A stretch of 64,000 nucleotides of DNA, taken from a virus. Its lineage: Duplodnaviria > Caudoviricetes. The first letter of the stretch is position 1; the number at the start of each line of letters is the position of its first letter. Shown one piece after another: positions 56,172 to 64,000 of this stretch. The stretch lies in the IMG/VR virus record IMGVR_UViG_3300025137_005045, one strand, 5' to 3'. A program made the translations under genes and the position numbers. Under the pieces are notes generated by a model, which saw nothing but the letters and a program-made list of their open reading frames with translations, made no database searches and was not told the origin of the DNA.

Positions 56172-57162
56172 ACTTAAAGACTTTTACAATCGAGCTGATC
56201 ATTACTCAACAGCAGAGCTACCTACCCTTCCTAAAGACGCAATAAAAATAATACCAGTAGCTACCTACTGTGAAGACAGTGATGCACATATAGATTATAT
56301 CAAGAACACTAATGATCATATTGTATTAGAAAACTGCATAGAGGGGTCTAGCACGCTTATCAGACACCTCGACAATGACGGTTTGTTAAAGCTAGCATTA
56401 GATAAAAAGTTTAGCATTATTTGTTCAGGTGAAATGCCAGAACAAATGAATTCGTTAAACATTGAATACATGATGTGGCTGACCGGTAACGTTAATCAAG
56501 ACAATCGAAATATTATGATACGTTATATTGATCGTCCGTACACATTTTTATTTCTCAATAATAGAGTAAGAACCCATCGAGCTAAATTAATTAGAGATCT
56601 GTATCGCAAGGAATTGTTAGACAAGGCATTATGGTCTAACATTAATATGGGTAATGACGATGCACCATTCAGTAAAAAATTACCAAAAAAGTATGGTCCT
56701 TATTCAGGAAAGGATTTAATTGATTGGGATAAGTGGGCGGCGGGACCAGCCATCGTTAATCAGTACTCTGACACGTACTTCTCGGTATTTGCTGAAAGTA
56801 CAGTATTACATAGATATTCTTTAATAACTGAAAAATCATGGAAACCAATTATTACTGGACATCCATTCTTAGCACTAGCAAGTGCCAATCATTATAAGAG
56901 GCTGAAAGAATTAGGATTTAAAACATTTAGCGGTATCATTAAGGAAGACTTTGCAAGTCTAAATAGATGGGAAGACAGAAGAGCTTGGTTAGTAACTGAA
57001 ATTGAAAGGTTATTAAGTTTAGATCTTGATCAATTCACAAGAGATTGCCAACCCGTTTTAGATCATAATATTGAACATTTTTGGAAGTTATGGGATAGTT
57101 ACTCTGCAAACACTAGCGATCAGATTGATCTATTTCTTAGTCAATTCGCCGAACAAGTGTGA
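56143..57162 (+). CDS. Glycosyltransferase-like protein (GT10-like TEK motif)
   Basis: LNNRVR.HR, YFSVFAES..LITEKSWKPI..HPF, LKELGFKT; paralog of 50277..51260. Confidence 0.45.
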   Translation: MKIYIHESSKLKDFYNRADHYSTAELPTLPKDAIKIIPVATYCEDSDAHIDYIKNTNDHIVLENCIEGSSTLIRHLDNDGLLKLALDKKFSIICSGEMPEQMNSLNIEYMMWLTGNVNQDNRNIMIRYIDRPYTFLFLNNRVRTHRAKLIRDLYRKELLDKALWSNINMGNDDAPFSKKLPKKYGPYSGKDLIDWDKWAAGPAIVNQYSDTYFSVFAESTVLHRYSLITEKSWKPIITGHPFLALASANHYKRLKELGFKTFSGIIKEDFASLNRWEDRRAWLVTEIERLLSLDLDQFTRDCQPVLDHNIEHFWKLWDSYSANTSDQIDLFLSQFAEQV

Positions 57163-61386: not shown

Positions 61387-62379
61387 ATGATTTCTTATCA
61401 TGATATAAAACATATCCACTTAGAAATATCTAGTTTATGTAATGCCCGATGTCCACTATGCCCTCGTAACTTTCACGGCTATCCCTATAATGATGGATAC
61501 ATAGAAAGAAACCTCACACTTGAAGATGTTAAAAAGATATTTGAACCCAACTTTGTGAAACAGTTAACGGGAGTAATGATCAATGGTAACTTTGGAGACT
61601 GTGTTATGAATACAGAAACTCCAGACATCATTGAATATTTTAAAACATACAGTCCTAATATTAAAATAGATATAAACACCAATGGTGGTGCACGCTCTAA
61701 ACAGTTTTGGCAACGGTTAGCTAAACTAGATGTTCGAGTATTTTTTGCATTGGACGGATTATCCGATACACATTCTATATATAGGCAAGACACGGTATAT
61801 GAAACAGTAATAAAGAATGCACAAACATTTATCAACGCAGGCGGTAATGCTATTTGGAAAATGATTCCTTTTGATCATAATCAACATCAAATTAAAGAAT
61901 GTCAAGCACTAAGTAAAGAACTTGGATTCAGTAACTTCATGTTAACAGACCAAGGTAGAGACAATGGAGTTGCAGTTGACAAAAAAGGCAAGGTTATTAA
62001 CGTAATAGGTAAGCCTGAGGTTATTAACTTTGATCAGCTATTAGAATCTAAAAAGACAGATGAGATATTATTAGAAGATCTTAATCCTGTGATCAAAAAC
62101 ATAACCTGTGAAGTAAAGAAAAGTAAATCAATATATGTAACAAGTACAGGAGAAGTATATCCGTGTTGTTATACTGGCTTTTATCCTAGAACATATGGTC
62201 ATGGACAATACTATCAAGTAGTTAATCAACAGTTAAAGGACATCATTGAACCTAACAATGCGTTAGAAACTTCTTTACAAGAAAGTATTAGTTGGTTTAA
62301 TAGTGTTGAGGAAAGTTGGAGTAATAAAGATTTCAACAATGGCCGTTTAGTTATCTGTAACGATGTTTGCGGTTCCTGA
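61387..62379 (+). CDS. Radical SAM protein with SPASM/twitch-like tail
   Basis: CNARCPLC (CxxxCxxC), VYPCC, CNDVC. Confidence 0.85.
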   Translation: MISYHDIKHIHLEISSLCNARCPLCPRNFHGYPYNDGYIERNLTLEDVKKIFEPNFVKQLTGVMINGNFGDCVMNTETPDIIEYFKTYSPNIKIDINTNGGARSKQFWQRLAKLDVRVFFALDGLSDTHSIYRQDTVYETVIKNAQTFINAGGNAIWKMIPFDHNQHQIKECQALSKELGFSNFMLTDQGRDNGVAVDKKGKVINVIGKPEVINFDQLLESKKTDEILLEDLNPVIKNITCEVKKSKSIYVTSTGEVYPCCYTGFYPRTYGHGQYYQVVNQQLKDIIEPNNALETSLQESISWFNSVEESWSNKDFNNGRLVICNDVCGS

Positions 62380-62410
62380 TAAATATACAGACTAGAGAGA
62401 ATAATAACCT

Positions 62411-62656
62411 ATGCAAAAAAAGACTAGAAGTATATTAGACGAACTAAATGACTTGCACATTCCAAAAGATAAAACACATCTTGTTGAAAGTCGTGCCAGT
62501 AATATTATCCAGTCGGCAATTAATCTATTTGAACAGATTGATAAAGCATATGACAGAGAGCAGGCAGACGACCTTCAGCGTAAATTCGTCAATGCCATTA
62601 AAACCAGAGATCCAAAAAAGTTTTATAGATCAGTGAGACGTAAAGATGAAGATTAA
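62411..62656 (+). CDS. Small hypothetical late protein
   Basis: 81 aa; late core 62380-62385. Confidence 0.65.
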   Translation: MQKKTRSILDELNDLHIPKDKTHLVESRASNIIQSAINLFEQIDKAYDREQADDLQRKFVNAIKTRDPKKFYRSVRRKDED

Positions 62657-63185
62657 TGAAATAATAAATGAAGGTATACTCGATCGACTACTTGGAAGAA
62701 ATACACAAGATAGAGAGCAAGCTATAAATGCCCAAGCAATGGTAGGAGCATCGAAAATAGCCGCAAGAGCATGGGGCAAGTACAAACAAAATTTAGAACG
62801 TATCAATAATTACAATCCAGTACCAAAAGCAATGCTTAACGATAAATTAATAAAATGGATAGACGATAATCTATTAGGATCTTATTCCTTAGCCAACGGA
62901 GGAAATGTCCTGAATACGGTTGTTAAAAGAATGTCCAGTAATATAATGAGTAATCCCGAACAAACAGAAGATTCATTCAAACAAATATTAACTGTTGCAG
63001 GTAAAGTCGCATTGGATCCTACAGCAGGTGCCTCAAGCGGAGGAGGATTTGATCCAAAAAGACAGGATATTTGTCGTGACCAACCAACAACGGTAAAAGG
63101 CGACACAATATATGTATGCGGTGAGCCAATTAAAGATGGCGAGCCTGGATACAAAGAACTTGCTAATAAGTTGGGCATAAAATGA
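62646..63185 (+). CDS. Probable internal head protein
   Basis: MKINEIINE|G leader. Confidence 0.55.
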   Translation: MKINEIINEGILDRLLGRNTQDREQAINAQAMVGASKIAARAWGKYKQNLERINNYNPVPKAMLNDKLIKWIDDNLLGSYSLANGGNVLNTVVKRMSSNIMSNPEQTEDSFKQILTVAGKVALDPTAGASSGGGFDPKRQDICRDQPTTVKGDTIYVCGEPIKDGEPGYKELANKLGIK

Positions 63186-64000
63186 TAATACTTGAGGGCG
63201 GTAACGTATTCAAAGACGAAAACAAACAACCGTTAACGCAACGTATCAATCTTGCTGACATTAAGCCAACAATACAACAATTAGAAAAACTTACTGGATT
63301 ATCCTTGCAAGATAACATGTTAGGTAGTACAGGTAATAAAGCAACCAGTGGTGATTTAGATCTATCAGTTGATGTTACAAAAACTTCAAAAGAACAACTA
63401 ATACAAACACTCAAGGCCAAAGGCGTGGATGACAAAGATATCGCTAAGTCGGGCGACAGTGTTCATTACAAAGCACCTATAAAAGGTGATCCCAACAATG
63501 GTTATGTACAAGCAGACTTTATGTTTGGTAATCCAGACTGGCAAAAGTTTAGTTTAAATGTTGTTGGAAACAGCGAATTTAAAGGAGTGCATAGACATAT
63601 CCTATTAGCAAGTATTGCCAAAGCAAGAGGACTTAAATGGAGTTATAAAAATGGTCTGTTGGTTAGAGACAGTAACAGATTGTTATCAGTTGATCCAGAC
63701 GAAATTGCTAAAATATTAATTGGTGGAACACGTAAAGATTTAAATTCAGTTGAATCAATAATTGCTAAAGTCAAACAAGATCCTGAATACGAAACACTAG
63801 TGGCAGATGCAAAGGAAACATTTGAAAAAGATGGATTGGTATTAGAAGATGCCAATGATGCAAACTTTTTAGCACGTTTAAGAGATCGTATTGTTAATCA
63901 AGGTATGCAAGTAATTATAGAAGCGGCTCGTATAGAACATCCTGAAGATATGATATTTGATGGTGCCAGCCAAGGTGCACTTAAAGCTATTGCTACCCTC
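63182..64000 (+). CDS. 3'-truncated Pol-beta-superfamily nucleotidyltransferase fusion (not in ORF track)
   Basis: ATGA overlap; MIILE|GGNVF...LGSTGNKATSGDLDL...VQADFM...VIIE|AARIEHPED; open to window end. Confidence 0.7.
   Translation, partial: MIILEGGNVFKDENKQPLTQRINLADIKPTIQQLEKLTGLSLQDNMLGSTGNKATSGDLDLSVDVTKTSKEQLIQTLKAKGVDDKDIAKSGDSVHYKAPIKGDPNNGYVQADFMFGNPDWQKFSLNVVGNSEFKGVHRHILLASIAKARGLKWSYKNGLLVRDSNRLLSVDPDEIAKILIGGTRKDLNSVESIIAKVKQDPEYETLVADAKETFEKDGLVLEDANDANFLARLRDRIVNQGMQVIIEAARIEHPEDMIFDGASQGALKAIATL

Follow-up and report, generated by a model that had tools for sequence, protein, structure and literature searches.

The open reading frame (ORF) that runs off the end of the 64,000-nucleotide stretch of tailed-phage DNA analyzed here raises two linked questions: which enzymes does it encode, and do they act in the infected cell or travel with the virion? 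This stretch, hereafter the window, corresponds to G000:C1:59371-123370 in a viral record of 132 kb whose completeness is estimated at ~36%. A preliminary description of the window had proposed a probably packaged nucleotidyltransferase of the Pol beta family fused to a second module, loosely analogous to T4 Alt, that might modify host tRNA or protein or counter nucleotide-signalling defence. We propose instead that the gene encodes a 601-aa precursor of two enzymes, which would be made late and loaded into the phage head. A T4-type prohead protease would cut it between MIILE and G6 and between VIIE247 and A248, and would thereby release a minimal family X DNA polymerase, reduced to palm and thumb as in Pol X of African swine fever virus (ASFV), and a divergent lysine-nucleotidyl ligase, the family DUF6267. 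The two would leave the head together with the DNA, fill short gaps and seal the nicks that result, most likely in the incoming phage genome and before phage gene expression. Taken as a whole, this scheme stands in our judgment at about an even chance. Its parts fare differently: comparative sequence evidence makes the processing and packaging of the 601-aa protein somewhat probable, and a role in DNA gap filling and sealing is about as likely to be right as wrong.

Two predicted enzyme folds in one chain

The ORF opens at an ATG at 63182 on the plus strand and stays open through the window end (273 codons within the window); no in-frame start precedes this ATG, so that the N-terminus reads MIILEGGNVFK. 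Truncation by the window end was the sole cause of its absence from the ORF track, as the preliminary description had supposed. Recovery of the complete frame, which that description recommended, gives 601 aa in the full record (L001:1501-3306, equivalent to window 63182-64987, with 987 bases beyond the window end). All of the strings quoted earlier are present in it: MIILE-GG at residues 1-7, LGSTG at 47-51, SGDLDL at 56-61, VQADF at 109-113, the acidic LEDANDAN at 221-228 and VIIE-AARIEHPED at 244-256. These strings are not there by chance: when 43 standalone homologues of 33-54% identity are aligned, no column is invariant except those of D58, D60 and D112. The same three residues are invariant in 25 fusion proteins.

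The AlphaFold2 model of the N-terminal domain, built on the 43-homologue alignment, has a predicted local distance difference test score (pLDDT) of 93.9, with disorder only at residues 1-4, and residues 6-240 are confidently modelled as a family X polymerase with palm and thumb. Foldseek matches listed against the PDB were all Pol lambda, Pol mu and Thermus PolX (E ~1e-5). In VIA-align, all 50 rows listed were family X polymerases, the best having Z 10.1-10.2 and a root-mean-square deviation (rmsd) of 3.5-3.9 over 163-175 residues. Model residues 11-191 were placed on Pol beta 139-335, Pol lambda 377-575 and Pol mu 275-494 (Z 9.9-10.2, rmsd 3.4-4.3, 159-175 residues). Model and alignment thus support the Pol-beta-family fold and its GS...DxD...D triad (LGSTG, D58-L-D60, D112), including the third aspartate that had been placed in VQADF, and the structure prediction suggested as a check of this fold agrees. 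cGAS/CD-NTase enzymes, CCA-adding and poly(A) enzymes and MNT toxins were all absent from the Foldseek and VIA-align matches listed, where unlisted families stay possible.

Only 10 residues precede the aligned palm core. The chain begins at the palm and leaves no room for an 8-kDa deoxyribose phosphate (dRP)-lyase domain or a helix-hairpin-helix subdomain, neither of which is present; ASFV Pol X is likewise not known to have either part. As modelled, then, the N-terminal domain is a mini PolX rather than a generic Pol-beta-fold transferase. Sequence searches gave no such answer. No Pfam family matched residues 1-273, or residues 1-250 of the full protein, at E <=1; PHROGs returned nothing for the 273 in-window residues; the 43-homologue profile found no PDB sequence at E <=10; and phmmer with the full protein found no relative among PDB sequences. 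The domain family is nonetheless large and mobile. At E <=1e-3 it comprises 712 cluster representatives at 50% identity, in which the domain occurs alone (~225-260 aa), before or after DUF6267, or within chains of up to ~1300 aa.

The second module that had been noted beyond the acidic linker is a separate fold. Residues 251-598 match Pfam DUF6267 (PF19782) with E 9e-42 and 144.2 bits against a cut-off of 27, over profile positions 4-374 of 376, and they also match phrog_455, a PHROG without assigned function. NCBIfam had nothing for this domain, Pfam had DUF6267 only, the DUF6267 profile found neither a relative nor any ligase among PDB sequences, and a literature search on DUF6267 found no paper. 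The family is widespread: 435 cultured phage records, mostly of marine cyanomyoviruses, and thousands of metagenomic proteins carry it. The AlphaFold2 model of the domain (52-member alignment) has a pLDDT of 94.3. The case for a ligase rests on VIA-align wide, a search independent of Foldseek, because Foldseek against the PDB gave nothing below E 1e-3, though ligases top its list. Ranks 1-23 of 48,161 representative PDB chains were all ATP-dependent RNA or DNA ligases (Z 4.8-7.1, 141-188 residues aligned). NgrRnl (Naegleria Rnl5) scored 7.1, REL1 6.3, T4 Rnl2 6.1 and T4 Rnl1 5.7, the first three over 163-185 residues; among DNA ligases, ligase III scored 5.6 and T4 DNA ligase 5.5. A viral structure library (BFVD) returned members of the family itself and then, as nearest non-family proteins, annotated RNA ligases. 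The protein-atlas lead was PF09414 RNA_ligase.

Conserved residues fit the same assignment. The motif I candidate K286-W-D288-G289 (KxDG), which lies just past the window end, is invariant in the 25 fusion proteins and in 52 DUF6267 proteins. Also invariant in the domain are D366, F382, P384, N385, E576, G577, V579, K584, V586 and R588. By inspection, without residue-level superposition, these supply candidate motifs III (GD366LLY), IIIa (F382-x-P-N385), IV (E576-G-Y-V579) and V (K584-x-V-x-R588), in the expected order and on predicted strands. The model contains no OB domain, the chain ending ~13 residues past motif V; its extra mass is an all-helical insert of ~110 residues (model residues 205-314). 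We favor a divergent lysine-nucleotidyl ligase fold, that is, a predicted covalent nucleotidyltransferase, because ligases alone fill the top ranks and the motifs fit, despite the moderate Z scores. Both fold assignments, read from the predicted models, are in our view very probably correct. A polymerase with a ligase-fold partner has the look of an enzyme set for filling gaps and sealing nicks, and not that of an Alt-like modifier or of an enzyme that makes or breaks signalling nucleotides.

Junctions, leaders and the late operon

If the two enzymes are released from a common precursor, the junctions should carry the marks of a protease. In the 601-aa protein the sites are MIILE/G at the N-terminus and VIIE/A internally (slashes mark the junction). 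We scanned 149 N-domain cluster representatives returned by the search, which hold 116 occurrences of the polymerase domain. In 10 of the 116, the domain starts directly at M-[GS]G. An h-x-E tripeptide (h, hydrophobic) stands before 104 of the 106 occurrences that have preceding residues, ending 75 of 77 N-terminal leaders and preceding all 29 internal occurrences, against a tripeptide background of 1.75% in the scanned proteins. The glutamate is seen only where residues precede the domain. Five residues, as in MIILE, is the most frequent leader length among the scanned homologues. Longer leaders resemble those of T4 IPII and IPIII, which begin MKTYQEFIAE/A; examples are MITFKQYILQE/GG and MRFTEFKTTLLE/GG. 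An h-x-E leader was also found in all 62 distinct related fusion genes from viral contigs.

The second junction behaves similarly. Most family members have [ILV]-x-E-[GAS] ahead of RIEHPED, at variable spacing and with some sites doubled, and E247, R250, I251, H253, P254, E255 and D256 are invariant in the 25 fusion proteins. Standalone DUF6267 proteins bear leaders of their own, such as MRYSEFKLVESKFYLSE/GARIDHAED, which again resemble those of T4 IPII and IPIII. As a separate observation, the predicted mature N-terminus GGNVFK (residues 6-11, window 63197-63214) is nearly invariant, and the same end would result from cleavage after the glutamate or from removal of methionine in the M-GG forms. 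Its free N-terminal amine is conceivably catalytic, for example as an apurinic/apyrimidinic (AP) or dRP lyase, although this is speculative.

The resemblance of MIILE/G to a T4 capsid-targeting sequence (CTS), which the preliminary description had pointed out, holds in part. The h-x-E site is conserved. However, the 601-aa protein has five leader residues only and no CTS-like leader of ~10 residues (MKTYQEFIAE type); the full pattern is found on the 179-aa ORF upstream, whose stop overlaps the start of the 601-aa gene (ATGA). In T4, a 10-residue CTS is enough for head loading, and the propeptide of Alt has only 7 residues (PMC9026906). The coupling to a leader-bearing upstream gene recurs among relatives. 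An upstream ORF is present for 55 of the 62 related fusion genes; 45 of the 55 have a CTS-like start (M[QKRS]-[ILVAS]-x-[EDQ]-h), and 49 overlap the fusion gene or end <=11 nt before it. In P0077, the 179-aa homologue, polymerase and ligase form one in-frame 789-aa chain with ...YALAE/GG at the junction. A programmed frameshift joining the 179-aa ORF to the 601-aa ORF was considered and dropped, there being no canonical slippery site at the ATGA.

The 601-aa gene is the third of an operon (Table 1) that comprises an 81-aa ORF, the 179-aa ORF, the 601-aa gene and a 188-aa ORF, with ATAAATA at its head. The 188-aa ORF starts at 64987, just past the window end, with the leader MEFIKDITE/S. A tblastn search of phages with the downstream 346-aa ORF found nothing. 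The first gene matches phrog_11854, "virion structural protein" (E 7e-17), and tblastn with its product hit PA5oct-like, RaK2-like and CBB phages, in which the homologues carry the annotation virion or structural protein. By its distribution, ATAAATA behaves as a T4-type late promoter of this phage. It has 23 copies on the plus strand of the 132-kb record, 19 of which fall in the intergenic DNA that makes up 4.8% of the record (binomial P ~7e-22), and the intergenic copies sit 12-108 nt before gene starts, those of large structural genes among them. At related loci the motif lies upstream in 27 of 52 cases against ~25% expected, a modest enrichment. Most copies occur as GATAAATA, and further copies are found at window 28458 and 31738. 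The exact 8-mer TATAAATA had no enrichment (3 found against 9.5 expected); it is ATAAATA, through its positions, that is informative.

Table 1. Features of the operon and of the polymerase-ligase gene, in window coordinates
Feature	Position	Strand	Remarks
Late-promoter-like (G)ATAAATA, T4-type	62379..62385	+	32 nt ahead of the operon's first gene
81-aa first operon gene	62411..62656	+	phrog_11854; homologue of small jumbo-phage virion proteins
179-aa gene with T4 capsid-targeting-like leader MKINEIINE/G	62646..63185	+	ATGA overlap with the polymerase-ligase gene
Leader MIILE, putative propeptide with head-protease-type h-x-E end	63182..63196	+	residues 1-4, pLDDT <50
Predicted mini family X polymerase domain, residues 6-223, palm and thumb	63197..63850	+	AlphaFold2, Foldseek, VIA-align, invariant Asp
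Catalytic Asp codons	D58 63353-63355; D60 63359-63361; D112 63515-63517	+	invariant in homologues
Acidic stretch, conserved helix ARLRDRIVNQGM, putative inter-domain site V-I-I-E247 / A-A	63851..63922	+	
Predicted DUF6267 ligase-like domain, residues 248-601	63923..64000, on to window-equivalent 64984 (L001:2242-3303)	+	PF19782

The record also encodes head machinery of the T4 type: a gp21-type prohead protease (PF03420, 85.9 bits, G000 56293-56724), a gp23 (323.9 bits) with ...KKHLAE/ASVAG near its N-terminus, and a gp22-like scaffold. Thus, the earlier statement that the protein is probably packaged now has comparative support from the h-x-E sites, the gp21-type protease, the late operon and the relatives and neighbors detected in virions (see below).

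T4 capsid-targeting-like leaders are not confined to this operon. Six ORFs carry them, at window 19958 (MKINEIIIE/G), 28489 (MKTFTEYLTE/S), 30348 (MKSLDEYLKE/A), 31788 (MKILEIQE/G), 62646 (MKINEIINE/G) and 64987 (MEFIKDITE/S), and two of the six lie directly behind ATAAATA motifs. Judged by these leaders, the six suggest that the head cargo of this phage comprises further proteins. A 330-aa ORF (window 61387-62379) with an N-terminal CxxxCxxC, radical-SAM-like by eye, lies after the helicase gene and ahead of the late operon. Elsewhere in the record, at L002:8470-12308 (G000 128469-132307), genes for a class-V aminotransferase (NifS/IscS-like), a NifU-like scaffold and then a B12-binding radical SAM protein look like an iron-sulfur cluster supply set.

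Relatives and competing explanations

Relatives give indirect support for packaging. In Pseudomonas phage PA5oct the gene order matches: primase, DnaB-type helicase, the 81-aa homologue, followed by a block of proteins annotated as structural from electrospray mass spectrometry in tandem mode (ESI-MS/MS). The polymerase-domain homologue EST35_0231 (BLASTP 9e-13) belongs to this block and is annotated "structural protein, ESI-MS/MS". We regard this detection as supportive of packaging, not decisive. The PA5oct block (L009, 145219-161806) holds MS-detected proteins without known function after the primase and helicase. A 446-aa PA5oct protein matches DUF6267 structurally (BFVD Foldseek E 6e-4) and is, from its length, probably EST35_0228 in that block; EST35_0227 was ruled out as the DUF6267 protein.

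Cyanophages provide a second comparison. The cyanomyovirus DUF6267 gene (T4-GC71) is found between gp41 and gp61, beside a "cytidylyltransferase", T4-GC190. The DUF6267 gene of Melnitz also sits between gp41 and gp61, and the protein upstream of it was ruled out as a PolX homologue. T4-GC190 starts with a CTS-like leader (MKKFSAFLKE/A or MITFHVFITE/A). It was detected in purified S-SM1 virions (PMC3037559), and its S-CREM2 counterpart was detected in purified S-CREM2 virions (PMC10665884). In the literature we found no link between cyanophages and capsid targeting beyond one review. Genes of the T4-GC190 type occur at L005:7902-9053 (P-SSM4), L006:7887-9044 (S-RIM8), L003:5210-6307 (P-RSM6) and L004:5583-7535 (Melnitz); their matches to nicotinamide mononucleotide (NMN) adenylyltransferases are weak and all sub-threshold. 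In S-PM2 and in uncultured phages, T4-GC190 is fused to DUF6267.

Fusion is in fact common. The polymerase and DUF6267 domains recur together in many chains and in either order, the polymerase domain almost always with DUF6267. Other fused modules are HIGH-type nucleotidyltransferases, NT5C/HAD phosphatases, an amidoligase, DUF5661 and the anti-Thoeris protein Tad3; of these, the HIGH-type enzymes match NMN adenylyltransferases weakly and below threshold. The joining of such unrelated modules by h-x-E linkers fits a cleavable, co-delivered cargo. Three metagenomic chains, P0153 (1002 aa), P0142 and P0173, string a PolX-like domain with Tad3, DUF5661, NT5C/HAD phosphatase and amidoligase modules, with h-x-E ahead of each PolX domain, and by this arrangement look like cargo polyproteins.

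Several points weigh against a packaged gap-filling and sealing pair. We infer cleavage, packaging, ejection and substrate (DNA or RNA, ATP or NAD+, deoxyribo- or ribonucleoside triphosphates) from what is observed, namely the two predicted folds, the conserved catalytic residues, the h-x-E junctions, the protease gene, the late-promoter operon and the coupled leader-bearing gene. The MIILE leader is half of a 10-residue T4 CTS, and targeting may need the coupled upstream protein. The h-x-E-GG element could be a structural piece of the domain, not a cut site. EST35_0231 starts MSGNAF, with no leader, and the 93 virion-linked products of the PA5oct paper include seven enzymes called virion-unrelated. 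Cyanophage DUF6267 proteins are likewise leaderless, starting MPNKHLEHPED. No sequence method ties either domain to a known family, and the ligase-fold match of the C-terminal domain is moderate (Z 5-7). RNA ligases match it best, and the substrate may therefore be something other than DNA. Finally, the 601-aa gene adjoins primase and DnaB-type helicase genes, and DUF6267 may also be, or may instead be, a replicative nick-sealing enzyme.

The last of these points leads to a competing explanation that we consider rather unlikely. Here the protein would be an unpackaged cytoplasmic enzyme of replication or repair: the polymerase would fill post-primer gaps, DUF6267 would seal Okazaki fragments, and the h-x-E-GG element would be structural. 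The position of the gene behind primase and helicase genes agrees with this, as does the location of DUF6267 between gp41 and gp61 and its leaderless form in cyanophages. According to a review, cyanomyoviruses lack gp30 but may have unrecognized distant homologues of it (PMC2984593); DUF6267 would then be the missing cyanophage ligase. Four complete DUF6267-bearing Kyanoviridae genomes indeed have no PF01068 or PF01653 ligase, and PA5oct has a conventional one. A profile alignment (hhalign) of DUF6267 with the PA5oct DNA ligase gave a probability of 0.1, that is, no signal. The 132-kb record itself contains no conventional ligase or HIGH-type nucleotidyltransferase, a result of little weight because the record is so incomplete. 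However, a purely cytoplasmic role sits poorly with an operon that opens with a late-type promoter and a virion-protein homologue, and with the detection of a polymerase-domain homologue in PA5oct virion preparations. A structural role for h-x-E is opposed by the loss of its glutamate along with the leader in the 10 M-GG proteins, and by the variable spacing between site and RIEHPED and the doubled sites. Long chains with unrelated modules such as Tad3 also fit co-delivery better than a replisome.

The choice of nucleic acid separates a second explanation, to which we assign a low probability: an RNA repair kit, packaged or not, in which the ligase would reseal host-cleaved tRNA or other RNA and the Pol-beta-fold domain would rebuild RNA 3' ends as a terminal nucleotidyltransferase, countering defences of the anticodon-nuclease type. 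The ligase half lends itself to this idea. Its best structural matches are Naegleria Rnl5, REL1, T4 Rnl2, T4 Rnl1 and Trl1; viral RNA ligases are its nearest annotated proteins in BFVD and RNA_ligase its protein-atlas lead; and it lacks an OB domain. Its motif I, KWDGKP, has no Arg, a residue usual in motif I of DNA ligases and capping enzymes. The RNA- and DNA-ligase rows nevertheless differ by <2 Z units, many of them tied, and the operon has no kinase-phosphatase end-healing module. In addition, it is templated DNA polymerases with which the N-terminal domain aligns, across the thumb as far as their C-terminus, and not CCA-adding or poly(A) enzymes.

An injected, Alt-like effector that nucleotidylates tRNA or protein of the host, or that produces or degrades signalling nucleotides, is highly improbable: the Pol-beta superfamily includes such enzymes and some polyproteins with the polymerase domain also bear Tad3, but the structural matches listed are all family X DNA polymerases with palm and thumb covered, the constant partner is a ligase fold, and no feature peculiar to cGAS, OAS, MNT or AMPylase enzymes appeared, so that neither the host-modifying role nor the counter-defence role first suggested for this gene is supported.

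The packaged polymerase-ligase pair also admits of variants. RNA or ribo-terminated nicks are possible substrates, since the nearest structures are RNA ligases. By analogy with bacterial LigD or Pol mu, it is possible that the pair patches with ribonucleotides and seals by an RNA-ligase-type enzyme. It is also possible that the ligase runs on NAD+ regenerated by the NMN-adenylyltransferase-like enzyme that is fused or adjacent in relatives. In the most general form, aquatic T4-like phages would carry a head-borne, protease-released polymerase-ligase kit that patches nicks and gaps in the genome on entry, and DUF6267 would be the "missing ligase" of cyanomyoviruses; we offer this generalization tentatively, as more doubtful than the proposal for the present phage.

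The predictions matter beyond this locus. DUF6267, a widespread family of unassigned role, gains a concrete predicted function as a ligase, and the assignment makes the cyanomyovirus ligase gap (PMC2984593) directly testable. The N-terminal domain, with its 712 clusters, would represent a new family of phage polymerases; a review of such enzymes from 2022 names no family X member in phages. If packaging is true, then T4-like phages load their heads with repair enzymes, beyond anti-restriction and host-takeover proteins, and do so through cleavable multi-enzyme chains, the sequence of which discloses the cargo. A nucleic-acid repair system delivered by the virion would be the first of its kind in a phage; it would matter for how phages survive sunlight damage at sea and for the early steps of infection. 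More practically, the small self-contained polymerase and ligase domains may serve as reagents.

Comparison with known systems

It is useful to contrast the predicted pair with better-known enzymes and delivery routes. The cargo route itself has a precedent in the T4 internal proteins IPI-III and Alt, from which the head protease takes off N-terminal propeptides with (L/I)-x-E at their end; by this route unrelated enzymes can be loaded and ejected into the host. Unlike those proteins, the present gene would specify a polymerase-ligase cargo with a five-residue leader of its own, a full CTS-like leader on the coupled upstream gene and a second, internal site.

The ligase half is most readily compared with Naegleria Rnl5, Trypanosoma brucei REL1 and T4 Rnl2, with which it shares the KxDG lysine motif and the lack of an OB domain. 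DUF6267 has no detectable sequence similarity to these nick-sealing RNA ligases, and it differs from them in its helical insert, which lies between motifs IIIa and IV, in the ~4 residues that separate motifs IV and V, and in a conserved N-terminal RIEHPED helix.

For the pair as a whole, the closest analogies are with eukaryotic viruses. Like Pol X (O174L) and the DNA ligase (NP419L) of ASFV, the present chain pairs a palm-plus-thumb family X polymerase with a viral ligase, although ASFV Pol X itself was not among the fold-search matches listed. The ASFV polymerase, ligase and AP endonuclease are packaged as late proteins, and the polymerase and ligase are thought to repair viral DNA before replication (PMC12172490). 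ASFV, however, is a eukaryotic virus that encodes the two enzymes in separate genes and uses a conventional ATP-dependent DNA ligase with an OB domain, whereas here a phage encodes both in a single chain, the ligase is the sequence-unrecognizable DUF6267 with a helical insert and no OB domain, and loading would apparently use T4-type leaders and protease sites. In Phaeocystis globosa virus (PgV), PgVPolX is a PolX-ligase fusion that fills and seals single-nucleotide gaps (PMC5537341). It resembles the present protein in joining a polymerase and a ligase domain in one polypeptide, but its Pol-beta-like core is complete, it has dRP lyase activity, and its ligase domain is of the NAD+-dependent LigA type; here, the models predict a reduced polymerase and a ligase resembling ATP-dependent RNA and DNA ligases, with protease-type sites flanking the domains. 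By analogy, then, the nearest counterparts of the pair are PgV PolX and the ASFV combination of Pol X and ligase. The novelty would lie in the phage host range, in the family of the ligase, in the reduced state of both enzymes and in the polyprotein-with-leader format.

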